Program-made: the position numbers and the translations under genes
Source of the DNA: Gemmatimonadales bacterium
GTDB lineage: Bacteria; Gemmatimonadota; Gemmatimonadetes; Gemmatimonadales; GWC2-71-9
Assembly: GCA_011772755.1 (NCBI GenBank)
Contig: WVYX01000192.1
Location: 1,856-65,855 of the forward strand
Reading direction: 5' to 3'
DNA length: 64,000 nt
Shown here: positions 9,094 through 60,009 of the stretch, piece by piece
Position numbering within the stretch: position 1 is the stretch's first letter
Layout of the letters: the number at the start of each line of letters is the position of its first letter
The notes under the pieces: model-generated
What the model was told of the DNA's origin: nothing
Databases searched by the model: none
What the model saw: the letters and a program-made list of their open reading frames with translations, nothing else

Positions 9094-9724
9094 GCTCGCT
9101 ATCACGCTGCTTTTGTTCCCCGGCTCGCTGTCGGCGCAGGGGTTTCTCGAGCAGTTCAGCTACGAAGGCCTGCGGTTTTCGGGGATTGGCTTCGAGTTCG
9201 GGGTCGTGGCGTCCGACCGCCTGACGGCGGAGCCCACCGGCGCCCTCCGGATCGACTACGGCTTCATCGGGCCCAAGGTTCGTGTGCTCATCGGTGCGTC
9301 GTACTTCAAGGGCGATTTCAACGCCGATGAGGTCAGTCAGTTCGAGACTCGCCTGCGGGGCGTGGTCCAGGACCCCACCGGCGATTTCGACATCGACGTT
9401 GGAACCATCACGTGGGCTGATCTCGAGGCCGCTCTGGATCTCCAGTATGTCCTCCAGCCGGATGGCCCGGTGAACCCGTATTTCGGCTTCGGCCTCGGCG
9501 TGCACATACGTGACGGGGACGGGGTCGCCATCGACGAGACCTTCGTCGAGGACGCGCTGGACACGATCGCGGCGGGTCTCACCCTGTCGCTCGGCGTCGA
9601 GATCGCCGTGGCGCGGCCCTTCTACTTCACCACCGACATCCGCGGGGAGGTCACCAGCGAACTCCGGACCGTGGCGGTCCGCGGTGGGTTCATGTATCGG
9701 ATCCCTCGGGGAGGCGGCGAGTGA
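9077..9724 (+). CDS. Secreted hypothetical protein, probable small outer-membrane beta-barrel
   Basis: Signal peptide (LAITLLLFPGSLSAQ), alternating beta-strand-like pattern rich in G/Y/F. No family recognised. Confidence 0.55.
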   Translation: MNAATRLAITLLLFPGSLSAQGFLEQFSYEGLRFSGIGFEFGVVASDRLTAEPTGALRIDYGFIGPKVRVLIGASYFKGDFNADEVSQFETRLRGVVQDPTGDFDIDVGTITWADLEAALDLQYVLQPDGPVNPYFGFGLGVHIRDGDGVAIDETFVEDALDTIAAGLTLSLGVEIAVARPFYFTTDIRGEVTSELRTVAVRGGFMYRIPRGGGE

Positions 9725-12361: not shown

Positions 12362-14314
12362 CTAGCTTGCTTCTTCGCTTTCCGCAGCCTTTTGAAACGC
12401 CTTCGCTTCCGAGAACAGTCTGAGGAGTGCGGGATCCAGCATCCCGGCTTCCGTCTCGTCCCGCAAGATATCGAGGGCTCGGGGCACCGGCACGGCATGT
12501 TTGTACGGTCGGTCGGATGCCGTCAGTGCGTCGAAGATGTCCGCGATCGTCATCATGCGCGTCTGGATGGGGATTCGCTCGGCCCCCACGCGCCGAGGGT
12601 AGCCCGATCCATCCAGCTTCTCGTGGTGTCCGAAGGCGATGTCAGGGACCGACCGGAGTTCCGGGGTCCACGGGATCTGCATGAGAAACCGATACGTATG
12701 CGTGACGTGGCTCTCGATCTCCTCTCGCTCACTCTGATCAAGACTACCCTTGCGAATGGAGAGGAACCGCACCTCGTCGCCGGTGAGGTACGGCTGCGAC
12801 TTCCCGTCGAGGTCCTCGAAGTACCGACTCGCATAGCGGCGTAGACTCTCGAAGCTCCCCTCCGGCAGGACCGTCGGTTCGTTCGATTCGAGCACCAGCC
12901 GCATGAACCGGTCCAGCTCCTCGATCTGCGTGCGATAGTCGGCTTCCAGGCGGCGGAGGAACTCCTCATAGCCTTGCCGGCCGTTGCGCTCCAGATACTG
13001 CGCGCGCTGGCGATGGAATTCGCTCTCTTGCGTGCGGCGGATGAACGCGAAGCGCTGCTTGATCAGCGCCAGGTCGGACGGGGGAAGCTTTTTCGCCTTG
13101 ACGAGCACCTGCTCCCGCACACCTACCTTCCCGAAGTCGTGGAGCAGACCGGCGTAGCGAATCTCACGGAGCTCTTCACGGGAATACCCGACGTGGCGAT
13201 ACGGTCCCTCTCGGGTGCGGTCCACCGCCTCGGCCAGCGCCACCGTCATGGACGCCACCCGTCCGGAGTGCCCGAACGTGGTGGGGTCCCGCTGCTCGAT
13301 GGCATAGACCGACGCTCGGACGAATCCCTCGAACAGTCGCTCGATGCCCTCATAGAGCTGGCTGTTCTCGATGGACACGGCGGCCTGCCCCGCCATGGCG
13401 GAGACTAGCTCGACGAGGCGGTGGGTGTACGGAATCACCTCCGCGTCAAAGTCCTCGGGGCTGGTGAGCTTGGCGTCACCGTGCCGCTTGCGGTTGATGA
13501 GCTGGAGCACCCCGATGACCGTGTCCTTGTGATCCTTCATCGGGATGGTGAGCATCGATTTTGAACGGTATCCGTACCTCTCATCAATCGAGCGGTTGAA
13601 CGTGTAGTCCACGTCTGGAGGAAGGAAATACACGTCGTCGATGACCAGGGGCTCACCGGTGGTCGCGGCACACCCTGCGATGCTCGTCGTGTCGAGGGGC
13701 ATCGTGTACTCCACCAGAGGTATGTCAGGCCGTGACGTGGTCTGCGACAGCTTGAACCGGAGGCGCCGTGGCTGGTCCTCGGGTGTCTCGACGAGATACA
13801 GGCTTGCCGCGTCGGAGGCGGTCAGTTCTAGCGCCTGTGACAGGATCAGCTCGAGCAGCGCGTCGTAGTCGCGCTCCGTGGAGAGCGCCATCCCGATCCG
13901 CGTGAGTTCCTTGATCTCCCTTGCACGGTATGCGGCTTCCTGGCGCGCGCGGGAGCTTTCGGCGCGGGCGGCCGCTTCACGGTATGCCGTACGGAGCGCG
14001 ACCAGGAGGTGCCGCGTACCGAAGGGCTGCGGAACGAATGCGCTGATCAGGTCGTCGGGCAGGGCGGTGGGGGCGTCTTTCTCGTCCGGGGCGCCGATTG
14101 CCACGATGGCACCACCTGCGCTCACGAACGTGCGGAGCTGGGCCGCGGGAAACGCCGAGCGACTAGCGGAATCCAGCACGAGCGTCGTTGGTACGTCGGC
14201 GACAGACAGGCCGTCCGCGGGTGTCACTTGTCGCGCGTCAACCGCTTCAGCCTCCAGGGCGGGGGCGATGGGATCCAGATCGAGGCTGGCTGGATGGAGC
14301 AGTACGTACTTCAT
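12362..14314 (-). CDS. HD-GYP-domain phosphodiesterase with N-terminal REC-like and central GAF-like regions
   Basis: HDFGKVGV and HHEKLDGSGYPR motifs in the C-terminal half. Central segment resembles GAF (SLYLVE ... MLTIPM ... GVLQLIN). ATG overlaps the mlaD stop (ATGA at 14311-14314). Confidence 0.85.
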   Translation of the reverse strand: MKYVLLHPASLDLDPIAPALEAEAVDARQVTPADGLSVADVPTTLVLDSASRSAFPAAQLRTFVSAGGAIVAIGAPDEKDAPTALPDDLISAFVPQPFGTRHLLVALRTAYREAAARAESSRARQEAAYRAREIKELTRIGMALSTERDYDALLELILSQALELTASDAASLYLVETPEDQPRRLRFKLSQTTSRPDIPLVEYTMPLDTTSIAGCAATTGEPLVIDDVYFLPPDVDYTFNRSIDERYGYRSKSMLTIPMKDHKDTVIGVLQLINRKRHGDAKLTSPEDFDAEVIPYTHRLVELVSAMAGQAAVSIENSQLYEGIERLFEGFVRASVYAIEQRDPTTFGHSGRVASMTVALAEAVDRTREGPYRHVGYSREELREIRYAGLLHDFGKVGVREQVLVKAKKLPPSDLALIKQRFAFIRRTQESEFHRQRAQYLERNGRQGYEEFLRRLEADYRTQIEELDRFMRLVLESNEPTVLPEGSFESLRRYASRYFEDLDGKSQPYLTGDEVRFLSIRKGSLDQSEREEIESHVTHTYRFLMQIPWTPELRSVPDIAFGHHEKLDGSGYPRRVGAERIPIQTRMMTIADIFDALTASDRPYKHAVPVPRALDILRDETEAGMLDPALLRLFSEAKAFQKAAESEEAS

Positions 14315-15168
14315 TTCGGCTGCTTCGCGGTATCGGGCGGCGGGGTGACGCCGGTGAGGATCCGCAGGGGACGTCGGCTGATCTTGTCCGCGAGGTTCTC
14401 GAGAATCACGGCGGAGCGGCTCAGGTTGGCGATCGTCTCATTGATGGCTTCTCGGTTCTCGCTGGCCATCCCGTAGGCGGTGGTGGCAAGGCTGTCCAGT
14501 TGGGCCAGCACGTCGCGAGTGAGCACGAGTGTCGCTACGAGGCTGTCGGCGATTGGCCCGACGCGGGGTTCGACCTGCGCCAGGATGCGGTCCGTCCGTT
14601 CCAGACTCTCCGTCAGGCGTTCGAGCACGGTTTCGAGCTGAGGCCGGGTGCTTGCCAGCAGGCTGCCGGTGGCGTCCACGGTCTGGGTCGTTCGGCTCAC
14701 GAGCTGTCGGGTTTCTGCCAGAGCGGCCACCAGGTCGCCACGCATTTCCGACGCGATCTGCGACAGCGCGTCCACCACGCTGGCGCGGCGCTGGGACCCG
14801 ATGGTATCGCCTGGCTGCAGGTCTGCCTGACCCGGCGCGGGTGGTGGCATGGTGAGCTGGATGACCGTAGGGCCCACCAAAGTCGGGGGTGGAGCGATTT
14901 CCGCTTTGATCTCTGCCGGCAGCCCCAGGCGCGTCCCGTCCGGAAACCGCTCTCGGATGGACAGCGTGGCGATGAATCCCAGGGTGTTAGTCGCTGAATC
15001 GAGTTTCGGGTTCACCTCGGTCACGCGTCCGATCTCCAGGCCCTGAAGCACCACGCGGGTATCCCGGGTGAGGCCTTCGGCCTCGCCGGCGCGCATGTAG
15101 ATCACATACCGGCCCTCCATCAGCCCGCTGGTCAACACCAGGGCGCCGATGATGATGCCCAGACTCAC
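14311..15168 (-). CDS. mlaD: MlaD/MCE-family substrate-binding protein
   Basis: N-terminal TM helix then MCE core (VVLQGLEIGRVTEV). The first canonical start is GTG at 15168, but the helix continues upstream to the preceding stop (see findings). Confidence 0.8.
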   Translation of the reverse strand: MSLGIIIGALVLTSGLMEGRYVIYMRAGEAEGLTRDTRVVLQGLEIGRVTEVNPKLDSATNTLGFIATLSIRERFPDGTRLGLPAEIKAEIAPPPTLVGPTVIQLTMPPPAPGQADLQPGDTIGSQRRASVVDALSQIASEMRGDLVAALAETRQLVSRTTQTVDATGSLLASTRPQLETVLERLTESLERTDRILAQVEPRVGPIADSLVATLVLTRDVLAQLDSLATTAYGMASENREAINETIANLSRSAVILENLADKISRRPLRILTGVTPPPDTAKQPK

Positions 15169-15222
15169 AAGGATGAACAGGCCGACCAGGAAATCGGTGC
15201 GTCCCGTGGGTTCCTCCCGAAC

Positions 15223-15897
15223 TCAGCCTTGCCGCCGCAGCTCACCCTTGGCGAGCCGGTAGCGGATCTCGATGCGGGGCTCCAATTGCTGGGGGACATA
15301 CTGCCCCGTCATGAACACCGTCCGCCTCGAACCTGCCTCAATTTCGCCACCTCGCGCAAGCTCCAGCACTTCGGCCGCGGCTCGGTTCGTGAGACCGTCG
15401 AACGGATCGGCCATGATTACCAGATCCGGGTCGAACGCCAGCGCCCGCGCCAAGGCCGCACGCCGTCGCTGCTCGTCGGTCGCTGACGCCGGCCTCAGAT
15501 CTGCCGCATCCACCAGTTGCAGCAGCGCTAGCATGATCCGTATCCGGCCGTCGATCTCCCGCTCCGTCATGTCGCTCCCGAAGCGCAGCGGTAGAGCGAT
15601 GTTGTCACGCAGGGAGAGGTTGTGCAACAGGCCGTCGCCGGCCGGAAGGTATCCCACCTGCCGGCGGAAGGCGAGCGTGGCACGCCGGGGCAACTTGGCG
15701 ACGTCCTGGCCGAACAGGAACACCCGGCCCGTGGTGGGCCGGTGGAGGGCCAGGGCGTATCCTGGTAGCGCGTCCACCCCGCTGGCTTCCGGCCCCACCA
15801 CCAGCACGGCACGGTGCTCGGGGACCTCCAATGTGGCGCCGCCAACGGCGATCCCGGGAAGGGAGATGTTCTCGAACTTGAGCGGCGCCGGCGTCAT
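15223..15897 (-). CDS. MlaF-like ABC nucleotide-binding-domain protein with degenerate catalytic motifs
   Basis: Collinear with ABC NBDs (LKFENISL ... RRQVGYL ... NIALPLRF ... RRRAALARALAFDPDLVIM). Walker A reads GPEASGVD, the signature reads ASATD, Walker B reads IMADPF, the H-loop reads MTGQ. ATG 15897 overlaps the mlaE stop (ATGA). Confidence 0.8.
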   Translation of the reverse strand: MTPAPLKFENISLPGIAVGGATLEVPEHRAVLVVGPEASGVDALPGYALALHRPTTGRVFLFGQDVAKLPRRATLAFRRQVGYLPAGDGLLHNLSLRDNIALPLRFGSDMTEREIDGRIRIMLALLQLVDAADLRPASATDEQRRRAALARALAFDPDLVIMADPFDGLTNRAAAEVLELARGGEIEAGSRRTVFMTGQYVPQQLEPRIEIRYRLAKGELRRQG

Positions 15898-16676
15898 GAC
15901 AGCAAGACGACGAAGAGGCCAGAGCAGATGAAGATAGCCACGATGCTGGCGACCACCGCCTGGCTCGAGGCAATGGGCACTTCGGTGGGAGAACCGCGGA
16001 TCGCCAGTCCCTGAAAACTGGGAATCATGCCCACGATGGTGCCGAACACCAGGCCCTTCACCACCGTGAGCCACACATCGCGAAACGTGAGGGAAGCGAG
16101 GACGATGTCAAAGTAGCGTGCGCTGGTCATCCCCGACGCGGCGGCGGCGAGCAGACCTGCGAAGATCGCCACGAGGTCGAAGAAGATGATCAAGCCCAAC
16201 AGCGAGAGGAGAGCCGCGCCGAAACGGGGAAGCACGTGATAGTGGAGGGGATCGATGCCCATGCCCTCAAGGGCGTTCATTTCGCCCATCACCTTGTTCG
16301 TGGCCAGCTCCGCCGCGATCGCCGTGCCCGAGCGCCCGGCCACGACCAGGGCTGTCAGCAGGGGACCGAGCTCCCGCACGATGGCCACGACCATGAGCCG
16401 CCCGATAAGCTCGGTGGCCCCCAGCCGCCCCAGCTCCCGAACGGCCTGGGAGATCACCAGGAAGCTCAGGATCGATGAGAGAACGATGATCAGGGGGACG
16501 GCTTGGAGGGCCGTGAACCACACCTGCCGCAGGAGAACGCGCAGGGCGACGCGGCGGCCTGCCCTCGGCAGCCAGCGCCACGATCCGAGCGTGAGAACGA
16601 AGAAGCGCGCCAGCGCCCCGAGCCAGGCGATTGAGCGCGCTACTCCTTGTCCGAGTGCCGCAACCGGCGCTGTCAC
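15894..16676 (-). CDS. mlaE: MlaE-family ABC transporter permease
   Basis: 260 aa polytopic protein with the conserved VRELGPLLTALVVAGRSGTAIAAELATNKV block typical of MlaE/Ttg2B permeases. GTG start. Confidence 0.88.
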   Translation of the reverse strand: MTAPVAALGQGVARSIAWLGALARFFVLTLGSWRWLPRAGRRVALRVLLRQVWFTALQAVPLIIVLSSILSFLVISQAVRELGRLGATELIGRLMVVAIVRELGPLLTALVVAGRSGTAIAAELATNKVMGEMNALEGMGIDPLHYHVLPRFGAALLSLLGLIIFFDLVAIFAGLLAAAASGMTSARYFDIVLASLTFRDVWLTVVKGLVFGTIVGMIPSFQGLAIRGSPTEVPIASSQAVVASIVAIFICSGLFVVLLS

Positions 16677-16688
16677 GCGCCTATGTTA

Positions 16689-17390
16689 CTATCCCTGCTG
16701 GATCTGCTTCAAGGCCTCCTGCGCCTCGGTGTACTCCGGGAACTCCCGCGTCACCTGGGTGAATAGCTCCACCGCCCGGTCGGTATCACCCCGGTCGGCG
16801 TACAGCAACGCCTTGCTGTAAAGCCGGAGCGCTTCCGGCGCGATCCGTTCGGACCGCTGCTGTCGCTGCTGGAAGGCCTGCCGGGCCAGGGGCGGCAGAT
16901 CGAGCCCGCGGGTCAGGTCGTTGGCGAGGTCCACGACGATGGAGAACATCTTGTCCCGGTTGTCACGCCCGCGCTCGACCTTGATGATCTCGCTGGTTTC
17001 GACATCCACGACGCGCGCGGTGAGGGTGAAGTCGCCGTACCAGTCTATGAACGTCCCAAACACCATGTACCTGGCGCCCACGAGTTTACCCACCCGGGCT
17101 GCGGTGCTCGGGTCCACCGTGCCTGAAGCCCCCAGCTCCAACTCCCGGACCAAGTCGGCAATCCGGCCGCGCTCGATGACGCGGAGCTGGTCGTTGACCG
17201 CAAACTCCGTCAGGAGGAGCTGTTGGATGCCCACGGTGAGCGCTTCGAAGTCTTCCTTGTCCTGACCGTACGAACCGCCGTCCTCGAACGGCATCACGGC
17301 CACGCCGGGCCGAGTGTCCTGCGCGGTCACGACCCGTGGTGCCACGAGCCCTGCGACCAGGGTCACGGCCAAAATCGAACGCCAGCGCAT
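16689..17390 (-). CDS. Secreted TolB-N/CsgG-like domain protein with C-terminal TPR-like helices
   Basis: Signal peptide (ILAVTLVAGLVAPRVVTAQD), VAVMPFEDGG ... ARYMVFGTF ... pattern of the TolB-N/CsgG-like fold, then TPR-like ALRLYSKALLYADRGDTDRAVELF. ATG 17390 is preceded by GGAGGAAAGG. Alternative ATG at 17405. Confidence 0.65.
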   Translation of the reverse strand: MRWRSILAVTLVAGLVAPRVVTAQDTRPGVAVMPFEDGGSYGQDKEDFEALTVGIQQLLLTEFAVNDQLRVIERGRIADLVRELELGASGTVDPSTAARVGKLVGARYMVFGTFIDWYGDFTLTARVVDVETSEIIKVERGRDNRDKMFSIVVDLANDLTRGLDLPPLARQAFQQRQQRSERIAPEALRLYSKALLYADRGDTDRAVELFTQVTREFPEYTEAQEALKQIQQG

Positions 17391-17404
17391 AGACCTTTCC
17401 TCCA

Positions 17405-18280
17405 TCACAGAGTCAGTTGCATCCCTTCGGTTGCGGCAAACACGTCGAGCGAATGCCCTGCCTCCTCCGCTTCGTTGCGAGTTGCCTCGAGCAGATTGTC
17501 CATAACGGCATCGTCGTGTTCCGGCCGGTGGTGAAACAGGAGCAGCTGCTTCACCCCAGCCTCCCCGGCCAACGCCACCGCCTCGGACGGTGTCGAATGA
17601 CCCCAGCCACGGTGTTGATCCAGATCTCCCGGCGCGTACATCGCGTCGTGGATGAGCACCTGCACCCCCGCGAGGAACTGCACAAACTCGGTGCGCCATG
17701 TCGGTGCCACGTCGTAGCTGCCGCCCGAGCCCAGCTCGTTGTCGGTTACGTATGCCATGCTGGCCCCGCCATCCGTCGGAGTCAGTCGGTAGCCGAGCGT
17801 GTTCCCAGGGTGGCGAAGCCGAATGGCTTCGACTGCAAACCCGTCGATCTCAAACGCTCCGGGGCCGACGTGCGCGACAGTCAGCTCGGCCGATAGTTGA
17901 TCCAGAGGCACCGGGAACACCACCGGGTGCATCTGCTGCCGGAGGATCACCCCGAGATCCACGTCGCCCTGTTTCGACCCCCAGATCCGCACCTCGTTCC
18001 CCTTGCCGAAGAACGGTGCAAAGAACGGCAATCCCTGAATGTGATCCCAGTGCGTGTGGCTCAGGAGCAGGTCGAGCTGCAGGCTGCCGTTGCCTAGCTT
18101 GACCAACTGCTTACCGAGGAGGCGGATACCGGTACCCGCATCCAGGATGACGAGGCGTTCCCCGGCGCCACTCCCGCACTGGACAGCCACGCACGGGGTG
18201 TTGCCACCGTACCGGGTGGTCAGCGCGCCAGGCGTAGGGACCGAGCCCCGGGCACCCCAGATGGTTATCGTGTACGCCAT
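17405..18280 (-). CDS. MBL-fold metallo-hydrolase
   Basis: WGARGSVPTPG ... YGGNTPC N-terminal block and the HTHWDH metal motif. 291 aa. Confidence 0.8.
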   Translation of the reverse strand: MAYTITIWGARGSVPTPGALTTRYGGNTPCVAVQCGSGAGERLVILDAGTGIRLLGKQLVKLGNGSLQLDLLLSHTHWDHIQGLPFFAPFFGKGNEVRIWGSKQGDVDLGVILRQQMHPVVFPVPLDQLSAELTVAHVGPGAFEIDGFAVEAIRLRHPGNTLGYRLTPTDGGASMAYVTDNELGSGGSYDVAPTWRTEFVQFLAGVQVLIHDAMYAPGDLDQHRGWGHSTPSEAVALAGEAGVKQLLLFHHRPEHDDAVMDNLLEATRNEAEEAGHSLDVFAATEGMQLTL

Positions 18281-18372
18281 GCACCCGATTTCGGCGCCAT
18301 CCCCGCCAAGCTACGGGGGGCCCCGAAGCTCGAGCAAGGCAACGTGTCACGGCGGGTCGGTGACATGGCTCA

Positions 18373-19071
18373 CTACAGGCCGGCGAGTGCCTCGAGGCCC
18401 ACCCGGTCGACGATGGCTATGTCCTTGCGGGACACTTCGATGAGGCCCCGGTCGGCGAACTCACGGATGGTCCGCGAGACGGTCTCCCGGCTGGAGCCGA
18501 TCATCTGGGCGATGGTATGGTGCGTCACCTTGCGGGGGATGGTCTTTCCATCGTTCTCATCCGCCAGCTCGATCAGGAGGCGGGCCACCCGACCGTTCAC
18601 GTCTAGCAGTACTAGGCCACCGATCTTGTCATCGGCACGCCGCAGGCGTCGCGACAGCGCCCGGAGCAGTCCCAGGGCGATCCGCGGTGTCTCTTCGAGG
18701 CACTGGCGAAAGTCCTCTCGCCGCAGCACCAGGAGGTTCGACTCCTCCATGGCGATGACGTGGGCTGATCGTGGCTGATCGTCGATCAGCGACATCTCTC
18801 CAAAGAAATCTCCGTCCCTCAACATGGACAGAATGACCTCTCGTCCGTCCTCGCCAATCAGGACTACCTTCACCTGGCCACTGAGGACCACGTAGAGGGC
18901 ATCGCCTGGGTCGTCTTCGAACAGGATGACGCTGTTCTTGGGGTAGCTCTTTTCGCGGGCCGCTTCGGTGATGTGCGCGATCTCCGCGTCGCTCAGCTGG
19001 GTGAACAGCGGGATCTGCCGCAGTCGCTTGGTCACGGACATGGGCGCATCAGCTGGGGAGCTGTCTGGCAT
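18373..19071 (-). CDS. Crp/Fnr-family transcriptional regulator (cNMP-binding domain + HTH)
   Basis: cNMP-binding fold (FGEMSLID ... RSAHVIA) followed by the HTH THHTIAQMIGSSRETVSRTIREF. 232 aa. Confidence 0.85.
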   Translation of the reverse strand: MPDSSPADAPMSVTKRLRQIPLFTQLSDAEIAHITEAAREKSYPKNSVILFEDDPGDALYVVLSGQVKVVLIGEDGREVILSMLRDGDFFGEMSLIDDQPRSAHVIAMEESNLLVLRREDFRQCLEETPRIALGLLRALSRRLRRADDKIGGLVLLDVNGRVARLLIELADENDGKTIPRKVTHHTIAQMIGSSRETVSRTIREFADRGLIEVSRKDIAIVDRVGLEALAGL

Positions 19072-19131
19072 GGTCAGGCCCTAGCTTACTCCTGGACCCC
19101 GGCTGTGTCAAATCAGAACCGAGTCGTCCGC

Positions 19132-25028: not shown

Positions 25029-25670
25029 TCACGGTACCACAACCCGTACCCCTGCTGGTACGTCGAACCGCAGCTCGGCATCGGGGATGGGAACATTGGT
25101 GCGGATCCGCCGGAAGATGAACGTCCGTCGCTGGCCTGAGGGCTCCCGCACCGCTATCCGCCGCAGCAGACCGTCGCTTCGAGCCACCGCTATTTCAGCC
25201 TCCCGAAACGGCAGGTCGTCGCGTCTCGGAGTGAGATGAACCACGTCAACCGTCTCGCCGCCGATGGTGTCCGTACCCACATAGCGTGCCGTGTAGCGTT
25301 CCAGTGGATTGTCGACGAACTGGCTAACCAGGTTAGGCGACGCGGTGCCCGACCGTGGGACGGGTTGCCTGATCACCTGGTCGGGTACACTGCTGGGAGC
25401 GTAGGCCCAGAGCCACGTCCCATCGGCCACGATCCGGTCTCCCTCGGGATGGATGAACCGCATCGCGAAGCGATCGGGAGGTACCAGGTACAGCACGCCC
25501 TGCGACTCCTCGGGGCCGCCCAGCATCGGATTGACCAGCGTTTGGGTGAACTCGGCCGTCAGCGTAGTGATCCCGCCGTAGGTCCGCTCGGCACGCCGCA
25601 GCGCCGTCGCCGCATCCTGCGCGGCCAGCGGCGAGGCCACGGCCAGGAGGGTGAGAAGCGCGGCTCTCAA
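25029..25670 (-). CDS. lolA: Outer-membrane lipoprotein carrier protein LolA-like
   Basis: Signal peptide, then TLTAEFTQTL ... GVLYLVPPDRFAMRF ... DGTWLWAY, the typical LolA pattern. 213 aa. Confidence 0.8.
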   Translation of the reverse strand: MRAALLTLLAVASPLAAQDAATALRRAERTYGGITTLTAEFTQTLVNPMLGGPEESQGVLYLVPPDRFAMRFIHPEGDRIVADGTWLWAYAPSSVPDQVIRQPVPRSGTASPNLVSQFVDNPLERYTARYVGTDTIGGETVDVVHLTPRRDDLPFREAEIAVARSDGLLRRIAVREPSGQRRTFIFRRIRTNVPIPDAELRFDVPAGVRVVVP

Positions 25671-26716: not shown

Positions 26717-27481
26717 CTACGCTCCTACGGAGAACCGGTCCCCATCCCGTGCGGCGACGATCTCACCGTCGAACTCCCGCGCGGCGACCGCCGCCGGGTC
26801 GATGTCGCCGAACACTGGGTAGAAGTGCGTCAGCACGAGGTGACGGGCACCAGCGGCACGCGCGAGCGCACCTGCCTGCGTAGGCGTTAAATGTAGCTCG
26901 ATCCCGAGTTCGTCCGGTAGGGAACATTCCGCGAGCAGGAGGCTGCAACCCACGGCCCAGCGAGCCAGCTCTTCGCTCGGCCCCGTATCACCGGTGTACA
27001 CCAGGCGCGTGCTGCCAGCGCGAATCCCATAGGCCAGGCTCTCCTCGGTGTGTGGCGTCTTGCAGGCCTCCAAGACCACCGCGTCTGCCAGCTCCCGTTG
27101 CTCGCCGGGCCCGATCTCGACGATCTCCAGCGGAAACTCCGGATCAAGCACCCAATCGCCATACGCGCTGGCCAGGTGCGCCATACGGGCTTGAAGCCCC
27201 CGGGGTCCGATCACCGTGAGTGGGGCGCTACGGCTAGGCTCAGTTCCCCACCGCAGCGCGAACATAAACATGACCAGCTCGCCCCAGTGATCCGGATGGA
27301 AGTGGGTGATCGCCAGGTGAGTCACCTCCGCCCACGGGATCTGGTATGTGACGGCGCGATGCAGGGTTCCGGCACCGCAGTCCAGTAGCAGCTGTACCGG
27401 TGGGGCGCTCACCCAGTACGCGGGCGCGGTTCGCTCGCTAGTGGGCGCAACGGTGCCACTCCCCAGAACGGTGAGGTCCAC
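26717..27481 (-). CDS. MBL-fold metallo-hydrolase (RNase Z/BN-like)
   Basis: HFHPDHWGEL metal motif. 254 aa. Confidence 0.75.
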   Translation of the reverse strand: MDLTVLGSGTVAPTSERTAPAYWVSAPPVQLLLDCGAGTLHRAVTYQIPWAEVTHLAITHFHPDHWGELVMFMFALRWGTEPSRSAPLTVIGPRGLQARMAHLASAYGDWVLDPEFPLEIVEIGPGEQRELADAVVLEACKTPHTEESLAYGIRAGSTRLVYTGDTGPSEELARWAVGCSLLLAECSLPDELGIELHLTPTQAGALARAAGARHLVLTHFYPVFGDIDPAAVAAREFDGEIVAARDGDRFSVGA

Positions 27482-34882: not shown

Positions 34883-37800
34883 TCAGAATGTGGGGCCCAA
34901 GCTCAACGTCCAGTACGATCCTTGCTCCTCCCGGGAGATGGGCTTGGAGTAGTCCGCCCGGACGATCATGAAGCCCAGCAGGTTGCCGCGGATGGAGATG
35001 CCCCAGCTTGCCAGGGGCTGGCGCACCAGATCTTTGTTGGCGTCCGGGGCGCGGCTGAAGACGACGTCCACTCCGTCCCGCCAGGCCAACCCGACGTCGA
35101 AAAAGACCGCTCCCTCGATGGGGGGGAGGCCGATCGGAGCGAACCCGAGGGCGACATTCCGCAGCAGTGGGAACCGCAGTTCTGCGTTGAACACGGCAAC
35201 GCGGGAGCCGATCAGCTGATCCAGGGCGCCGCACCCCGAGAACGATCCGCTGGCATCGCTGCGGCATTCGTTGTTCCTCAGGGAGCCCGAGGTGTAGCCC
35301 CGCAGCAACTCAGGTGTTCCCAAGAAGATTGGGAACTGGTTGCTGTCACGGCCGAATCGTCCAAAGAACAGGAACCGCGACGCGAAGGTGAAGGGGCCGA
35401 ACAGGTGGTCGTATCGCCGATAGTCACCCAACAGTTGGTGGAACGTCCAGTCACCGAAGGCGGGGGCATACTCGAACCGGCTCCGCCGCCCCATGAACGG
35501 GCCGACCCAGAGCGAGACGGAATTGTCGAAGACCAGTGCCAGGGACGGTTGGAAGTAGTTGATCCCACCCAGCCCGCGGTCCTGCCGATCCCGGTCGAGC
35601 ACCAGCATGGACGCCGGGTCGAATGTGTCGATGATGTCCACCGCCGCCCGCGACACGTTGGCGGCACGGATGCCAAGCTCGACTCGGCGGAACCGGTTGA
35701 ACGGCCGGAGAGCGTCCGCAAACGCCTCCCGCACGATGAACCGCTCCAGCGTGGTGGTGAGAGTCGGATTACCCACCGAGTCGAGCCCGAACTCGCTCTG
35801 CGTGAAGAAGAAATAGGGTGTCTGCGAGATGCCTACCGCCCAGTTAATCCGGCGGCTCAGGTTGGCGTAGATCGCGAGAACCTGCGCCTCCTCGATGCGC
35901 CCGTTCACCTGTCCGGCCGCCAGCACCCGATGGTTCCCCAGCATGTCGGAGAGGGAGATTGCACTGCCGCCGAAGAAGCCGCTGCCGAAGTTGTCCCGTA
36001 CGTATCCGACCGACGGCTGAACCACGTAGTCTACGGACAGCTTGGACGAGTAATCTCGGAACATGAACGCGAGCGAGTCAGGCAGCTCGAAGGCAGCGCT
36101 GTCCAGCAGTGCTTTGACCGAAATCGGAGCAGGCGACGAGTCGGTCGCCTCGGGCGTACTCGCGGATGTACGGAGGCCTGCCGCGGAGCGGTACAACGAC
36201 CGACGGCCGGTGCTGGGGCGCGCGGCTGCTCCTGGGGGTTCTCCGCGTCGGATAGCGCCAGCGCTGTCCCCGGGGGCGGGCGTCGCTACCGGCGTGTATT
36301 GCAGAGCCGCCCGGTCCTGCCCCGGTGGCGCCGCAGTGTCCGGACGATCGGAGATTAGGGACGCCACGATCGGGCGGGGCGCCGACTCGTCGTAGGGACG
36401 ACCCTTGAGGCTCCGGGGATTGTCGGCGGCGTAGACGTTGAACTCACCCTTCTCGTAGTACGTGAACACCAGTCGGTCGGCTGTTCGCGCCCAGGAGATA
36501 GCCGGCGAGAGGGGCGTGATACCTGAGACGCCCGTGAAAACGTCGGTGAGCTGATACGTCTCCCTGTCGTCGAAGTCGAAGAGGAACAGGTTCGGAATGC
36601 CGGTCCGATCAGACAGGAATGCGATCGACCGCCCGTCGGGTCCCCACTGAGGATTCGTGTTGTTGCCCGACATCCGATCAAGGACGTCGATGCTATGGCC
36701 TTGGAGGTCGTAGAGTCCGATGCTCAACGGTCCTACCTGGAGCGAGCGGAGATCCGTGTGGGGCCCACGGTCCGTGGCAAACGCGATCGTGCGGCCGTCT
36801 GGTGACCATGACGGGTGCAGATCAGCAAAGCGATCGTTGGTCAGCCGGCGCAGGTTAGCGCCGTCGGCATCTACGATGAAGAGATCCGAGAATCCCCCAT
36901 CGTAGCCGGTGAAGACGAGTTGCGTCCCGTCAGGGGACCACGATGGCGTCGTCACCCCGTGCAACGGCACTTCAATCCGTTTGTGCACACGAGTCCGCTG
37001 CATGTCGAAGATGACGAGATCGTCCACGCCGGCATGCTTGACCGCGATGGCGAAGAACTGTCCGTCCGGGGACCAGGCGCCTGCTGAGTTCAGGAAGCGG
37101 AGGCTCTCGAAGTCACTGCTGAAGGCACTCTTGATCAGCCGCTTCTTGACCAAGCCGGTCTCCGCGTCGGCCAGGTACAGATCGATGAAGAACGAGTTGC
37201 CTTCGGAGAGATAGGCAATGTCCTGCCCGTCGGGGGAGATCACCGGCGATATGTGCAGGGTCCCGTTGGACCTCCGCCTGGTGAGCACGGGGTGGGAGAA
37301 CTGACGTGCCTGCTGGAGGTCCGCGATCTGCGGGAGATACGTCCGCTGCACCGCGTCTTGCCATTGCTCCACCAAGTCTTCCAGGGTCACCCCCAGAGCG
37401 CGACGAAAGGCCCCTTGCACACCGGATATGGATGCCGCGTGTAGAATCTCGCCCACGGCTTCATCACCCCACCGTTCGCCGATGTATGACCACAGCGCAT
37501 GGCCGAAACGATACGGGGAGTAACGGGGGTCCCAAGTCAGCTGCTCGATGCTCGGCAGCCCGCCCTCGAGCGCGGCGTCCCGCACCCACATCGCCGTCTG
37601 CGGGTCGATCGGTCCCAGCGACAGGTACTCAGCCATTCCCTCCATGAACCACAGCGGCGGGCTCACTGAGATGAGGCGTTGAATGCCGGCGCCTACCTGA
37701 CCACGGGCGAATACGTCGAACTGGAACTGGTGGACGATTTCGTGCTGGAGAACGTGCTCGAACTCTGCGTACGAGCCCGTGAAGGGCAGTAGCACGCGGT

Positions 37801-38146
37801 GTCGGAAAGGCTCGGTGACGCCGCCCGTACCCTCGCCGATAGTGGTGATATTGTTCTGTTGGAACTCGCTATGTGACGCGAACAGGATGATTGGCTGGCG
37901 CTCGCGGTATCGATGATTGAGGATGCGTGACAGCCGACCGTAGGCCCGCTCCGCCATGCGTGCCCCATCCAGCGCCGCCTCCCGTTCACCTGCGTAGAAG
38001 TACACGTCGAAGTGCTCCGTCTCGATTACAGCAAAGTCGAGATGGCGGTACTGGACCTTGTTTCGGCCGAAGTACTGCGCCGGCAACGGCGTGGTGAGTA
38101 ACACCGTTGCGCACACGGCCAGTTCGACGATTCGACGCATCGGCAC
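34883..38146 (-). CDS. Omp85-family outer-membrane beta-barrel fused to an HExxH peptidase-like domain and a PD40/TolB-type beta-propeller
   Basis: Signal peptide. HEIVH at residues 135-139. Five W/SPDG PD40 repeats (SPVISPDGQ, AWSPDGQ, PSWSPDGT, PSWSPDGR, QWGPDGR). P/A/S-rich linker. C-terminal surface-antigen barrel (FFDVGLAW ... ADYSKP ... LSLGPTF, terminal Phe). Confidence 0.8.
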   Translation of the reverse strand: MPMRRIVELAVCATVLLTTPLPAQYFGRNKVQYRHLDFAVIETEHFDVYFYAGEREAALDGARMAERAYGRLSRILNHRYRERQPIILFASHSEFQQNNITTIGEGTGGVTEPFRHRVLLPFTGSYAEFEHVLQHEIVHQFQFDVFARGQVGAGIQRLISVSPPLWFMEGMAEYLSLGPIDPQTAMWVRDAALEGGLPSIEQLTWDPRYSPYRFGHALWSYIGERWGDEAVGEILHAASISGVQGAFRRALGVTLEDLVEQWQDAVQRTYLPQIADLQQARQFSHPVLTRRRSNGTLHISPVISPDGQDIAYLSEGNSFFIDLYLADAETGLVKKRLIKSAFSSDFESLRFLNSAGAWSPDGQFFAIAVKHAGVDDLVIFDMQRTRVHKRIEVPLHGVTTPSWSPDGTQLVFTGYDGGFSDLFIVDADGANLRRLTNDRFADLHPSWSPDGRTIAFATDRGPHTDLRSLQVGPLSIGLYDLQGHSIDVLDRMSGNNTNPQWGPDGRSIAFLSDRTGIPNLFLFDFDDRETYQLTDVFTGVSGITPLSPAISWARTADRLVFTYYEKGEFNVYAADNPRSLKGRPYDESAPRPIVASLISDRPDTAAPPGQDRAALQYTPVATPAPGDSAGAIRRGEPPGAAARPSTGRRSLYRSAAGLRTSASTPEATDSSPAPISVKALLDSAAFELPDSLAFMFRDYSSKLSVDYVVQPSVGYVRDNFGSGFFGGSAISLSDMLGNHRVLAAGQVNGRIEEAQVLAIYANLSRRINWAVGISQTPYFFFTQSEFGLDSVGNPTLTTTLERFIVREAFADALRPFNRFRRVELGIRAANVSRAAVDIIDTFDPASMLVLDRDRQDRGLGGINYFQPSLALVFDNSVSLWVGPFMGRRSRFEYAPAFGDWTFHQLLGDYRRYDHLFGPFTFASRFLFFGRFGRDSNQFPIFLGTPELLRGYTSGSLRNNECRSDASGSFSGCGALDQLIGSRVAVFNAELRFPLLRNVALGFAPIGLPPIEGAVFFDVGLAWRDGVDVVFSRAPDANKDLVRQPLASWGISIRGNLLGFMIVRADYSKPISREEQGSYWTLSLGPTF

Positions 38147-38499: not shown

Positions 38500-40383
38500 C
38501 TATCTTGTCGTATCGAGTTCTGCTGCGAATTGTTCCGCGGCTTCCGAAGGTGCTGCGTCCTCAACCTGGTAAAATATACCCCATGCCCCTGGTCCAGTGT
38601 GCACACCGAGCGCGGCCGTCACTTCACTGACGTGGCACTCGCGCGGCGAATAGCCGCGCACCAGCTCCTCCTTCAGAGCCTGTGCCAGCTCCGGGACGCC
38701 GGCATGCGCCACTCCCAGGCGCAGTACCGCGGGTCGGGGCGTGAGCCGGCGATCGAGATGCTCGAGTACCCGCGGGACCAGGGCGTCCCGACCGCGGACT
38801 CGGTCCAGCGGCGCGATCCGTCCCTCCGGCGTCACCTCGAGGATCGGCTTGATGTGCAGCAGACCACCGAGCCAGGCACGTCCCCGGCTCACCCGACCCG
38901 AGCGGAGCAGGTTCTCGAACGTATCTACCGTGAAGAAGCCCCCAGACTGGTCGCGCACGCGGTTCAGTTCCCGCACGATCTCCGCCACGCTCCAGCCTGC
39001 ATCGACCAGCTCTACCGCGCGCAACGCGAGCATCCCGAGCCCGTAGGACGCCGACCGCGAGTCCACAATGGTCACTGAGTTGCCCTGGCTGCAGGCCTGA
39101 GTTGCTGCCTGCGCTGACGCCAGCGTGCCGGACAGCTGACCGGCTATGAACAGGCCGAGGACCTCATCTGCACTTGAGCAAGCGTCTTGAAACGCGTTGA
39201 CGAAAGCACCTGGCGGAGGCTGTGAGGTGGTGAAGATCTCGCCCCCCTCCTGCATCCGGCGGTAGAGTTCCTCTCCCTGGATATCGACCCGGTCGGCGTA
39301 GGTCCGCTCGCCAGCGATGACTTGGAGAGGGACCACCACCATGCCGTGGACATCCAGCAGACGATCCGGTAGGTCGCAGGAGGAATCCACGACGATGGCG
39401 ATTCGGCGACGTGCGGCGTGCAACGCACGGTGCTGCTCCCGGATGTCGTCCGCTTTAGTGGTTTCAATGGCGCCCCAAGTGGCCGCGAGGTCGAAGACCT
39501 GGTGGGGGGCGTCCGTGTGCACGTGGACCTTCAGCAGGTCGTCGGTTGCAAGCACGACGATCGAGCCGCCGAGGCGCCGTAGCTGCGTTCGGATCTCGAT
39601 GCTGGGTGGGAAGTTGCTCCCCCGAACCAGCACTTCCGTGCAGTAGCCGTAATCGCGCTCAGCTGCGACCTCCGCAAGTGCCGCAGCATCCGGAACGGTG
39701 TACGCAATCGGCTCCGTGGCTGGTAGGATCGGGTCGCCCTCCATCAGGCGGACGACACCCTCGAGTACCCGGATGAATGCCTTGGCGCCGGCATCGACCA
39801 CGCCTGATTCCTTCAGCACGGCGAGGAGCTCGGGAGTGCGTCTCAGAGAGACCTCACCCCGTGCCAGGACGTGGTGCATCATCTCCTGCAGGTTCGTCGT
39901 GCGCTCTGCCGCCCACTCTGCGGCGGTAGCAACGTCCCGGGAGACTGTGAGGATCGTGCCTTCCACGGGCTCGTCCAGCGAGCGGTAGAGCCGCTCGGCT
40001 CCCCTCCGCATGGCGCGGGCCACATCCTCGGGTGCCGCGGTCTCGAGATCTCCCAGGGCTTCGCGGAAGCCCAGCAGGAACTGGGAAAGGAGCATGCCCG
40101 AGTTGCCACGTGCCCCGAATACGCAGGCCTCCGCCATCGCCTTTGTCACTACGGGGAGCTTCGCCGTCTCCAGAGCACGCACTGCCTCGGCTGTAGCGCG
40201 CAGGGTCATGGCGAAGTTCGTGCCAGTATCTCCGTCGGGGACCGGGAACACGTTGATGCGGTTGAGTTCCTCGCGCCAGGCGTCCACCCAGTCGGCGGCG
40301 GCGAGGAGCGACCGGCGGAGACGGACGCCGTCGAGGTAGGCGATCCCGACAGCGGCGTGACTCACTATTCTTTCACCACCCAC
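38500..40383 (-). CDS. DAK2 (DhaL-like) domain protein fused to a DegV-type fatty-acid-binding domain (FakA/YloV-like)
   Basis: N-terminal NVFPVPDGDTGTN Dak2 motif, middle GYCTEVLV ... LKVHVHTD module, C-terminal IAIVVDSSCDLP ... TTSQPPPGAF DegV signature. Alternative GTG start at 40365 overlaps the rplI stop by 1 nt. Confidence 0.8.
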   Translation of the reverse strand: MGGERIVSHAAVGIAYLDGVRLRRSLLAAADWVDAWREELNRINVFPVPDGDTGTNFAMTLRATAEAVRALETAKLPVVTKAMAEACVFGARGNSGMLLSQFLLGFREALGDLETAAPEDVARAMRRGAERLYRSLDEPVEGTILTVSRDVATAAEWAAERTTNLQEMMHHVLARGEVSLRRTPELLAVLKESGVVDAGAKAFIRVLEGVVRLMEGDPILPATEPIAYTVPDAAALAEVAAERDYGYCTEVLVRGSNFPPSIEIRTQLRRLGGSIVVLATDDLLKVHVHTDAPHQVFDLAATWGAIETTKADDIREQHRALHAARRRIAIVVDSSCDLPDRLLDVHGMVVVPLQVIAGERTYADRVDIQGEELYRRMQEGGEIFTTSQPPPGAFVNAFQDACSSADEVLGLFIAGQLSGTLASAQAATQACSQGNSVTIVDSRSASYGLGMLALRAVELVDAGWSVAEIVRELNRVRDQSGGFFTVDTFENLLRSGRVSRGRAWLGGLLHIKPILEVTPEGRIAPLDRVRGRDALVPRVLEHLDRRLTPRPAVLRLGVAHAGVPELAQALKEELVRGYSPRECHVSEVTAALGVHTGPGAWGIFYQVEDAAPSEAAEQFAAELDTTR

Positions 40384-58197: not shown

Positions 58198-60009
58198 CTA
58201 CGATTTGAGACTCAGCACTTCAAACACGGCCAGTCTCTGGGATTTGCCCCTCAGAGGCACTTCGGGCATGGGACGGCATTCAAACTCGCCACGGACTGCC
58301 TCGTAAGTGGCCCCGGTAATGAGAATGGTCGTGCCGAACTCCTTGTTGAGAGCCTGCACCCGCGAGGAGGTGTTGACGCCATCACCGATGACCGTGTACT
58401 CGAGTCGTTTGCGCGAACCGATGTTGCCGACGACCACCTCGTCGGTGTGGATCCCGATCCCGATGGAAATGGGGGCCAGGCCCTTCATCGCCCGCTCGCC
58501 GTTGATCTTCCCCAGCAGGGCTTTCATGCGCAGCGCCGCCATCACGGCGCGCCGGGGGTGGTCCGAAGTCTTGCCCAGCGAACCGAAGACGGCCATCATC
58601 CCATCCCCGATGAACTTGTCGAGTATGCCGCTCTGCTCGAAGACGGCTTCCACCATTTCGCTGAAGTAGTCATTCAGGAAGGCGACCACCTCGGTGGGCG
58701 CCATCTGCTCGGCCAGGGCCGTGAAGCTGCGGATGTCGGAGAAGAGGATGGTGACGCACCGGCTTTCGCCCCCCAGATTCACGTCTCCCCTCATCACCTC
58801 TTCCGAGACCTGCTTCGTCACGTACCTCCCGAAAACCTCCTTGATGAACTCCTTTTCTTCCAATCCTTTCGCCATCCGATTCAAAGAGACGCTCAGCTGG
58901 CCGAACTCGTCCCGGCCGGGATCGGCGATGCGGGCCGTGAGTTCGCCCGAATCGATCAGATTAACCTCATTCAAGAGACTGGACAAAGGCTTCCGCAAAC
59001 TGTGCGCGATCCACCACGCCACCAGCAGACAGAGTGCGGTAAAGACCGCGGCACCGAAGATGAACTGCCTACGCAAGGTGACAAGGGCTGCGGACGCCTC
59101 GCTCTGCTGCATTTCCGTCATGAGCACCATCGGTTTCGGATTAACGGTCGCCGTACCGTCTAGCGCACGGTAGACGTAAAGCATCTCTTTCCCCTCATTG
59201 TTCACTGCGACCGCCGAACCCTCTTCGCCCCGGAGCGCGGCGCGCACAGCGGGATACTGGGACACGTTGTCTCGCAAACGCTGGGGGTTAGGGTGCGCCA
59301 GCATCAGGCCATCCTGGCCGACGATGGCCGAATAGCCTGTCTCCCCGAATCGGGTGGAAGCGACGATGCGGGTCAGCACTCCCTGGATGTCGAAACTGGA
59401 GGCCAGAAATCCGGCCACTTCTCCCGACGTGGACTTGACCGGGACGCCAATAGTGAGGACGTAGCGGCCGAGTGCCGCGGAGTAGTGGGGATCGCTGGCG
59501 AAACGGACACCCTCGAGGCCGTAGGCAATCGCCACGCGGCCGATGGCCTCGGACTTTGCGCTCGGATCGACGGTCAACACCGAATTGCCGTGCCGGTCGA
59601 TGAGGTTGAACTGTAAGAAGCTGGGATTAGCGTGCTGGAGATCGCGAAGCGACTGGCGTATCAGACTGGCGTCCCCGGAAGAGAGGCCGCGCTTCGAGGC
59701 GTCCGCGATCGCATCCAGCGAGGTCATGGCCTGATCGAGCGAACCGCTGACCTCGCTTTCAATGATGCCCTCGATGTTTCCCAAGTGCTGGACCGCTTGT
59801 GCGGAGAGGAGGCGTTCCGCCGAATTGAATCCCCACGCGCCGAGGAGGATCGAAGAGGTGACTCCGATGCCTCCTAGCGCCAGCATCAGGGTGATCAAGA
59901 ACCCCCGCCGGTAACCCGCCAGCCAGCGCCGTTCCAGCGCAAACAGGAATAATGCGAGCAGCGCGGTCGCCGCCAGAGCGGTTAACCCCCAGCTCATCGT
60001 CAAAACCAT
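58198..60009 (-). CDS. Membrane-bound class III adenylate/guanylate cyclase with periplasmic Cache-like sensor and HAMP
   Basis: Two TM segments flanking a roughly 270-aa sensor, HAMP (DEFGQLSVSLNRM), cyclase core (VTILFSDIRSFTAL ... KFIGDGMMAVFG ... IGIHTDEVVVGNIG). Confidence 0.88.
   Translation of the reverse strand: MVLTMSWGLTALAATALLALFLFALERRWLAGYRRGFLITLMLALGGIGVTSSILLGAWGFNSAERLLSAQAVQHLGNIEGIIESEVSGSLDQAMTSLDAIADASKRGLSSGDASLIRQSLRDLQHANPSFLQFNLIDRHGNSVLTVDPSAKSEAIGRVAIAYGLEGVRFASDPHYSAALGRYVLTIGVPVKSTSGEVAGFLASSFDIQGVLTRIVASTRFGETGYSAIVGQDGLMLAHPNPQRLRDNVSQYPAVRAALRGEEGSAVAVNNEGKEMLYVYRALDGTATVNPKPMVLMTEMQQSEASAALVTLRRQFIFGAAVFTALCLLVAWWIAHSLRKPLSSLLNEVNLIDSGELTARIADPGRDEFGQLSVSLNRMAKGLEEKEFIKEVFGRYVTKQVSEEVMRGDVNLGGESRCVTILFSDIRSFTALAEQMAPTEVVAFLNDYFSEMVEAVFEQSGILDKFIGDGMMAVFGSLGKTSDHPRRAVMAALRMKALLGKINGERAMKGLAPISIGIGIHTDEVVVGNIGSRKRLEYTVIGDGVNTSSRVQALNKEFGTTILITGATYEAVRGEFECRPMPEVPLRGKSQRLAVFEVLSLKS

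Follow-up and report, generated by a model that had tools for sequence, protein, structure and literature searches.

An MlaE–MCE operon with a degenerate ATPase subunit, a GAF-HD-GYP phosphodiesterase and an adjacent Crp regulator in Gemmatimonadota

Lipid homeostasis of the outer membrane depends centrally on MCE/Mla systems, for which the direction of transport and the need for energy are still a matter of debate. A gene cluster on a Gemmatimonadales contig (WVYX01000192.1) raises the question of what such a machine may do when its nucleotide-binding domain (NBD) subunit has lost the motifs for ATP hydrolysis and its genes are packed together with those of signalling proteins. The stretch of DNA analysed, here called the window, comprises 64,000 nt at ~65% G+C, and seven minus-strand open reading frames (ORFs) fill positions 12362–19071. 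In reverse-strand reading these encode a Crp regulator, a metallo-β-lactamase-fold (MBL) hydrolase, a TolB-N/CsgG-N-like protein with tetratricopeptide repeats (TPR), an MlaE permease, the NBD protein, an MlaD-like MCE protein and an HD-GYP phosphodiesterase. An initial annotation, made from the sequence alone, had described a packed minus-strand cluster; its coordinates and each junction it listed were matched on the sequence, the packing being operon-like, and its Mla/MCE, HD-GYP, GAF, MBL and Crp domain calls were all backed by Pfam and NCBIfam profile searches of the window proteins. All parts belong to known families, and what is distinctive is the combination of a dead NBD with fixed coupling to signalling enzymes.

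The NBD gene (15223–15897, minus strand) had been read as an MlaF-like ATPase, an assignment that did not withstand motif alignment. The 224-residue product matches Pfam ABC_tran (ATP-binding cassette, ABC) at just 39 bits. Upon alignment with FtsE and MlaF, the Walker A consensus GxxGxGKS was found to read GPEASGVDA, the LSGGQ signature ATDEQ (as part of SATDEQ) and Walker B (hhhhDEP) VIMADPF, while the Gln of the Q-loop and the His of the H-loop have given way to other residues within LPAG and TGQ, respectively. Neither GK[ST] nor LSGG[QE] was observed in any orthologue (0/81 in both cases), and every one of them has lost the Walker A Lys/Ser, the Q-loop Gln, LSGGQ, the Walker B Asp-Glu pair and the H-loop His. 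The Walker B pair varies freely among orthologues (AD, EQ, EE, ED, EN, ER and others), as one would expect in the absence of selection for catalysis. With none of the catalytic motifs retained in any of the 81 orthologues, the subunit cannot be an ATPase. The fold is nevertheless predicted to be complete: the AlphaFold2 (AF2) model (pLDDT 87.5, pTM 0.85) adopts a full ABC NBD fold, with Foldseek TM-scores of 0.81–0.87 to MlaF, LolD, FtsE and MacB (0.87 to MlaF, 6xbd_I). The window protein is 100% identical to that of a Gemmatimonadales metagenome-assembled genome, and it and its orthologues are publicly annotated as 'MlaF ATPase' or 'ATP-binding cassette domain-containing protein'. Since public pipelines name the subunit in this manner, the dead variant is invisible in annotations.

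The loss of all catalytic motifs could also be read as decay, i.e. a non-functional transporter whose NBD gene is turning into a pseudogene. Arguing against such a relic, the ORF is intact in 81 loci at 53–80% identity with 48 invariant columns, the model is a confident NBD fold, and the protein evolves no faster than its neighbours (mean pairwise distance 0.56, compared to 0.49 for MlaE, 0.50 for HD-GYP and 0.34–0.83 for flanking housekeeping genes). Decay is consequently regarded as extremely improbable. The pseudo-NBD rather appears to be under purifying selection, with a rate that falls among those of housekeeping genes flanking the cluster. Its strongest conserved block is the Q-loop/helical-subdomain region, and in ABC structures the groove formed there holds the coupling helix of the permease. 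A family-specific invariant loop, RGGE..G.RR, follows Walker B, and the former P-loop has kept invariant Gly35 and Ser39-Gly40 while the Lys is gone. The family is narrow, as a profile search of 1.84 billion representatives returned 29 proteins at E ≤ 1e-30, and all full-length family members among these are degenerate.

The nearest other single-NBD proteins were found in metagenomes (loci L086–L088 and L090 and one JGI contig). These keep Walker A and lack both the catalytic Glu of Walker B (DDP, DTP or DQP) and the LSGGQ signature, and their operons run MlaE, NBD, long MlaD (Helical_needle) and a protein of 263–316 aa of no assigned family, without HD-GYP. Such loci may represent a wider class of hydrolysis-impaired MCE systems.

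The remaining two transporter components are readily recognized. The permease gene (15894–16676, minus strand, GTG start) encodes an MlaE-type protein of 260 aa (Pfam PF02405, 8.5e-57, 192.6 bits against a cutoff of 22.5; NCBIfam TIGR00056, 140.9 bits, under the subfamily cutoff of 212) that shares 52–85% identity across loci. The MCE gene (14311–15207, minus strand; 298 aa) matches Pfam MlaD (PF02470, 1.8e-7, 31.8 bits against a cutoff of 25.1) as well as TIGR00996 Mtu_fam_mce, the actinobacterial Mce family (4.7e-19), with an additional weak match to Mce4_CUP1 (0.004). When the family profile was compared with the PDB, Mce1 of M. smegmatis (8fed_E, 3.9e-9 over residues 30–265) came ahead of E. 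coli MlaD. The AF2 model comprises a transmembrane helix at residues 2–26, barrel strands at 33–140 (pLDDT 84–92) and two long helices at 144–212 and 217–278, of 69 and 62 residues, which would form a needle of ~135 residues. Foldseek placed all six Mce1 chains (Mce1A–F) at the top of its list, with a TMt of ~0.8 to the E. coli MlaD core. Modelled in this manner, the protein has an MCE barrel behind an N-terminal membrane anchor and a Mce1-type helical needle. It shares the transmembrane helix, barrel and long needle with mycobacterial Mce1 (YrbE1A/B–MceG–Mce1A–F; 8fed/8fee). However, in Mce1 six different Mce proteins form a heterohexamer powered by an active ATPase, MceG, whereas here the NBD is inactive and the single MCE gene of the operon implies a homohexamer. 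The chain ends in a SRRPLRxLTGVxPPP tail, part of a near-invariant C-terminal family motif, F.DQ.SRRPLRxLTGVxPPP.DT (window 14311–14370, minus strand), which may act as a docking peptide for an unnamed periplasmic or outer-membrane partner.

The initial annotation had proposed a conventional ATP-driven Mla transporter, gated by nucleotide second messengers, in which the TPR, MBL and HD-GYP proteins take the roles of MlaC and MlaB. The genes for MlaE, MCE and an NBD-fold protein indeed adjoin one another, and signalling domains share their operon, so that the association of Mla with signalling genes stands. It is, however, not likely that a normal Mla ABC transporter carries out gated trafficking here, because the NBD cannot be an ATPase in any orthologue. 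In an ABC dimer, each ATP site is composed of the Walker A motif of one subunit and the signature of the other. As each site needs the motifs of both subunits, even a heterodimer of a dead and a live NBD would contain no intact ATP site, and no second ABC NBD, MlaE or MCE gene was found in the 64-kb window. MlaB (STAS), MlaC and MlaA were likewise not found in the cluster or among the annotated ORFs of the window, in line with the absence originally noted for MlaC and MlaB. The claim that they had been replaced does not hold, since the widespread ancestral form is reported to be an MlaEFD-only system with an elongated MlaD, and most MlaEFD systems lack MlaB and MlaC anyway (PMC10665443). With the MCE protein carrying its own needle as a further point against it, the ATP-driven model appears improbable.

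In common with E. coli MlaFEDB, the cluster has an MlaE permease, a single-MCE membrane-anchored subunit, an NBD fold (TM 0.87, 6xbd_I) and E-F-D adjacency. Unlike that system, which works with MlaC and MlaA, it is devoid of MlaB, MlaC and MlaA and has an MCE needle of ~135 residues; its NBD lacks both the ATP motifs and the extension that MlaF has at its C-terminus, and the operon adds HD-GYP, MBL and a periplasmic TPR protein behind a putative CRP box. Another parallel is the minimal MlaEFD of Veillonella parvula, an E-F-D core without MlaA/B/C whose elongated MlaD is proposed to span the periplasm (PMC10665443). Still, the V. parvula MlaD ends in an outer-membrane β-barrel in place of the short conserved Pro-rich tail seen here, and its MlaF is reported to resemble the canonical protein, with no signalling genes described, whereas the present NBD is dead (PMC10665443).

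The arrangement is not a peculiarity of one assembly. When one genome per GTDB species was scanned with a pattern, 153 pseudo-NBD relatives were obtained, and the best 80 of these 153 were retrieved with their loci, all labelled Gemmatimonadota, Gemmatimonadales or Gemmatimonadaceae; the contig of the most divergent pseudo-NBD (P0123) was too short for gene context. As determined by tblastn with the window proteins, the seven-gene order and strand are the same in all 80 loci as far as the contigs reach, with the exception of one locus (L073), and this order holds down to 53% (NBD) and 30% (MlaD) identity. Metagenome contigs show the same gene order. The adjacency is thus lineage-wide in Gemmatimonadota and not confined to a single genome, the case that the initial annotation had named as speaking against its proposal, and the seven-gene arrangement is far more than chance.

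The junctions are similarly conserved. In the window, the stop of mlaD and the start of the HD-GYP gene overlap as ATGA (14314–14311), and a 4-nt overlap is found at this position in 72 of 76 genomes; the two genes are translationally coupled. A corresponding ATGA joins mlaE to the NBD gene (15897–15894; overlap in 48 of 66). The TPR gene ends at 16689 and the GTG of mlaE (16676) comes 12 nt later, the gap being 1–19 nt across loci. The crp stop codon (TAG, 18375–18373) is separated by 92 nt from the MBL ATG at 18280, and the corresponding distance is 61–111 nt in 68 of 69 cases (median 89, with one outlier of 770 nt). The MBL gene stops at TGA 17407–17405 and the TPR gene could start either at ATG 17405 (1-nt overlap) or at ATG 17390 (14-nt gap), the latter being preceded by GGAGGAAAGG. 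Since the MBL–TPR gap in orthologues is 11–22 nt with a median of 14, the start at 17390 is favoured. A scan for terminator and promoter consensus sequences gave no convincing internal terminator; it also missed both promoters described below, which are proposed from conservation instead. An Rfam scan of the window for riboswitches and leaders returned a single tRNA and nothing else.

The junction between the NBD and mlaD-like genes is less conventional. The mlaD-like frame is open directly after the NBD stop (TGA, 15225–15223) and in the same frame. Read-through or fusion was considered and dropped, because the frames differ in other genomes and the shared frame is thus a coincidence. The conserved N-terminus RTDFLVGLF has no canonical start codon upstream, the first one being a GTG downstream at 15168, and MCE homologues with canonical starts include this N-terminus. 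A Shine–Dalgarno sequence, GGAGG (15217–15213), is followed after 5 nt by an ACG (15207–15205, minus strand) that is invariant in 16 loci of the window's clade; in other clades the equivalent codon is GTG, ATG, CTG, ATA or ATC. Based on the conserved N-terminus and the invariant ACG behind GGAGG, the mlaD-like gene probably starts at this non-canonical codon. Gene callers cut the protein at an internal GTG, losing part of the transmembrane helix.

The gene coupled to mlaD (12362–14314, minus strand) encodes a 650-aa protein with a weakly receiver (REC)-like N-terminal domain, a GAF domain and an HD-GYP domain carrying a ~100-aa insert. Pfam detected GAF and a split HD/HD_5, and the best PDB matches include PmGH of Persephonella marina (4mcw, 3.7e-34) and V-cGAP3 (1.1e-23). 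The GAF domain resembles those that bind cyclic nucleotide monophosphates (cNMPs), e.g. cAMP-binding CyaB2 (1ykd, 2.1e-15). The window protein carries LLHDFGK, HHEKLDGSGYP and RPYK, and HD, HHEK[LM][DN]GxGYP and RxY[KR] are present in 68–69 of 69 orthologues. The RxYK motif goes with c-di-GMP rather than cGAMP specificity, and in Tlr0485, another GAF-HD-GYP protein, cAMP activates the enzyme (10.1101/2021.11.05.467447). With all catalytic and c-di-GMP-specifying residues in place, the HD-GYP domain looks catalytically competent. The GAF-HD-GYP core with its HD, HHExxDGxGYP and RxYK motifs is shared with PmGH and Tlr0485. Unlike these, the protein has an additional N-terminal domain of ~125 aa, an insert of ~100 aa at the KPG-loop region, where both insert flanks align to the same PmGH segment, and coupling to an MCE gene. 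Pfam returned nothing for the N-terminal 125 aa or the insert. The three best PDB profile matches of the N-terminal domain are all receiver domains and all weak (4n0p, 0.0047; 3hv2, 0.035; 2jk1, 0.074), hhalign gave no match to CheY, and neither the Asp- nor the Lys-equivalent receiver residue is conserved; the domain is thus at most a degenerate receiver.

Upstream of the operon lies crp (18373–19071, minus strand; 232 aa), whose product matches Pfam cNMP_binding (3.7e-29), HTH_Crp_2 (7.4e-21) and the NCBIfam CRP model NF008732 (1.9e-40). All 69 orthologues carry the cNMP-pocket pattern GE...R[ST]A and a CRP-type recognition helix, RETVSR (RE..R). A putative CRP-type operator, GTGAgccatgTCAC (18360–18373), begins on the final nucleotide of the crp stop codon. 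In the alignment of 67 crp–MBL intergenic regions the box GTGA-N6-NCAC is present in all 67, with the perfect GTGA-N6-TCAC in 57 and 45 different spacers, against a background of 0.056 per kb over 1.4 Mb of loci. The cNMP_binding and HTH_Crp_2 domains, the RExxxR helix and a palindromic site of the TGTGA-N6-TCACA type together identify the protein, as judged from its sequence, as a CRP/FNR family member. A third half-site, GTGA(C), lies 9 nt downstream of the box (18346–18350, minus strand) and is found 8–10 nt past it in 59 of the 67 regions. Farther downstream, the alignment retains CTTG and TAnnTT blocks, which correspond to a putative operon promoter (18308–18337, minus strand) with a -35 element TTGCTC (18337–18332), an 18-nt spacer and a -10 element TAGCTT (18313–18308). 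The RE..R helix, together with a σ70-like promoter preceded by a GTGA-N6-TCAC palindrome, recalls class I/II CRP-cAMP promoters; unlike in those, the box abuts the stop codon of the regulator's own gene and is followed by the third half-site. A putative promoter for crp itself, TTGACA-N17-TAAGCT with a perfect -35 element, is located at 19083–19111 (minus strand), and TTGACN-N16-18-TANNNT occurs in 61 of 71 orthologous crp upstream regions, mostly ~40 nt before the start codon. As the -10 element stops ~11 nt before the ATG, the conserved elements suggest a leaderless or almost leaderless crp mRNA. The crp upstream region contains no CRP box of its own. A membrane-bound dCache_1-HAMP class III adenylate/guanylate cyclase is encoded 39 kb from the cluster (58198–60009, minus strand) and is a possible source of cNMP for Crp and the GAF domain.

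From this sequence evidence, the cluster reads as a lineage-wide Gemmatimonadota operon directly downstream of its own crp, with a conserved putative CRP box and promoter in between. The reading we prefer, although we would give it slightly less than even credence, is a cNMP-Crp-controlled, ATP-independent Mce-type envelope complex that is functionally tied to a PmGH-like GAF-HD-GYP phosphodiesterase and serves as a sensor/relay or a regulated passive conduit. In such a scheme, cNMP-bound Crp would turn the operon on from the box, whose distance to the predicted -35 element resembles that of a class I activator site. Two MlaE, two pseudo-NBD and six MCE-needle subunits would assemble into an envelope-spanning complex which could not be driven by ATP, and which would therefore be either a passive or regulated lipid bridge or a sensor of the periplasmic/outer-membrane lipid state. 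On the cytoplasmic side, the dead NBD may offer a platform for docking or relay, the HD-GYP protein made with it would lower c-di-GMP, and its GAF domain possibly answers cAMP or cGMP as in Tlr0485; the two activities would tie the envelope state to the second-messenger level. FtsEX and BceAB-BceS offer a comparison for how such a complex may work, rather than for family membership, being ABC-like membrane modules with regulation of a partner enzyme as output; those systems do need ATP hydrolysis, which the present complex cannot perform. A more specific version would have the MCE/Mla machine give up ATP-driven transport to become a signal transducer spanning the envelope or a ligand-gated passive lipid conduit, the dead NBD dimer being a cytoplasmic adaptor that either relays the lipid occupancy of MlaE and the MCE needle to the degenerate-REC-GAF-HD-GYP protein, which sets c-di-GMP, or itself binds a cyclic nucleotide to open the conduit. 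Stated in this form, the proposal is rather unlikely.

The main rival reading has co-regulation but no physical coupling: one Crp-switched transcript encodes mechanistically independent modules (MCE, c-di-GMP phosphodiesterase, MBL and periplasmic TPR protein) that share only the timing of their expression. Several observations weigh against our preferred reading and bear on this choice. The whole ~20-kb neighbourhood, with L31, RF1, PrmC, YlbF, Tmk and CtpB on one side and Lnt, GFO/IDH, an outer-membrane protein and SpoIID on the other, is largely syntenic in the same genomes, apart from insertions, losses and rearrangements in the flanks. Gene-order conservation alone consequently overstates functional linkage, part of it being phylogenetic inertia. 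Evolutionary-rate covariation (mirror-tree residuals, partial Mantel, 41 genomes) gave MlaE–MlaD, MlaD–HD-GYP and MlaE–HD-GYP as the top three residual correlations, but pairs with flanking housekeeping genes, taken as controls, reached the same 'significance', so that cluster pairs could not be separated from controls, and the NBD correlated negatively. Locus L073 keeps the rest of the cluster without the TPR gene, a canonical MlaF encoded beyond the 64-kb window is possible, and that HD-GYP is coupled to the MCE complex, whether physically or allosterically, is something we infer. GAF-HD-GYP proteins elsewhere are, moreover, stand-alone enzymes (PmGH, 4mcw). Conversely, independent modules do not readily explain why the 4-nt mlaD/HD-GYP overlap is retained in 72 of 76 genomes over ~40% protein divergence, or why the cluster stays intact while its flanks gain, lose and rearrange genes, and the dead NBD needs some non-catalytic role in any case. 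On balance, the rival is possible but doubtful.

A further alternative is that the pseudo-NBD pocket has been re-used as a receptor for c-di-GMP, cAMP or cGMP, the ligand opening or closing the MlaE/MCE conduit without hydrolysis while HD-GYP and MBL set its local level. The invariant Gly35 and Ser39-Gly40 of the former P-loop, the new RGGE..G.RR loop and the presence of two phosphodiesterase-type enzymes and a cNMP regulator in the same operon unit would fit such a receptor. The idea is purely inferential, though: the pseudo-NBD showed no recognizable motif of the kinds known to bind c-di-GMP or cNMP, and an Asp in place of the Walker A Ser/Thr would be unfavourable for binding phosphate, which makes a receptor function improbable as well.

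If the signal-transducer/conduit reading is true, the operon represents a direct, hard-wired link from outer-membrane lipid status to second-messenger signalling. The initial annotation had not recognized the arrangement as a described system, and full-text literature searches agreed with this, returning no link of MlaE/MlaFEDB to HD-GYP or c-di-GMP, no degenerate MlaF and no Gemmatimonadota system. The coupling to HD-GYP and a Crp operator would, in the literature searched, be the first described link of MCE to c-di-GMP/cNMP signalling. A naturally ATPase-dead MlaE–NBD–MCE complex also allows one to ask what the machine does without ATP, i.e. whether it serves as passive bridge, sensor or scaffold. 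Gemmatimonadota are abundant in soil and sediment, and their physiology is little studied experimentally.

Two genes of the operon remain. The first encodes a cytoplasmic MBL-fold hydrolase of 291 aa (17405–18280, minus strand; Lactamase_B_2, Pfam PF12706, 5.3e-17), and HxHxDH is present in 70 of 70 orthologues. Beyond this only weak matches were obtained, to RNase Z (74.7 bits) and to the cNMP phosphodiesterase model NF041851 (41.5 bits against a cutoff of 400). Assignment as a clear Apyc1-like cNMP phosphodiesterase was accordingly dropped as unproven, and the initial description of the MBL as a signalling protein is unproven too, because it is only remotely related to known cyclic-nucleotide phosphodiesterases. 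One possible role is that of a phosphodiesterase resetting the inducing nucleotide. A second Lactamase_B_2 protein is encoded at 26717–27481 (minus strand), near LolA (25029–25670, minus strand), and scores 103.8 bits on NF041851; the two MBL proteins of the window have no significant similarity to each other.

The second (16689–17390, minus strand) encodes a secreted periplasmic protein of 233 aa with a signal peptide, a CsgG-N/LpoB/TolB-N-like domain and C-terminal TPR. The signal peptide is of type I, with no lipobox Cys, in 14 of 14 orthologues examined. Pfam matched CsgG (1.5e-14, profile positions 7–99 only), LpoB (9e-5) and, weakly, TPR families. The TPR part of the original 'TolB-N/TPR' call is kept, whereas the N-terminal domain scores best as CsgG N-terminal/LpoB-like, a fold class also found in TolB-N. 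In locus L073 this gene is cleanly lost (~9160–9228 of that locus), while the other six genes and the C-terminal tail motif of MlaD are kept. Binding of the TPR protein to the conserved MlaD tail was considered and is unsupported, as the tail is still present in L073 without the TPR gene.

Two further minus-strand ORFs in the window were noted outside the cluster. A protein of 1087 aa (34883–38146) combines PD40/TolB-type β-propeller repeats with a C-terminal Omp85-superfamily barrel, an unusual fusion, and in a single 627-aa ORF (38500–40383) a Dak2/FakA-like fatty-acid kinase domain is fused to a DegV (FakB-like) domain for fatty-acid binding.

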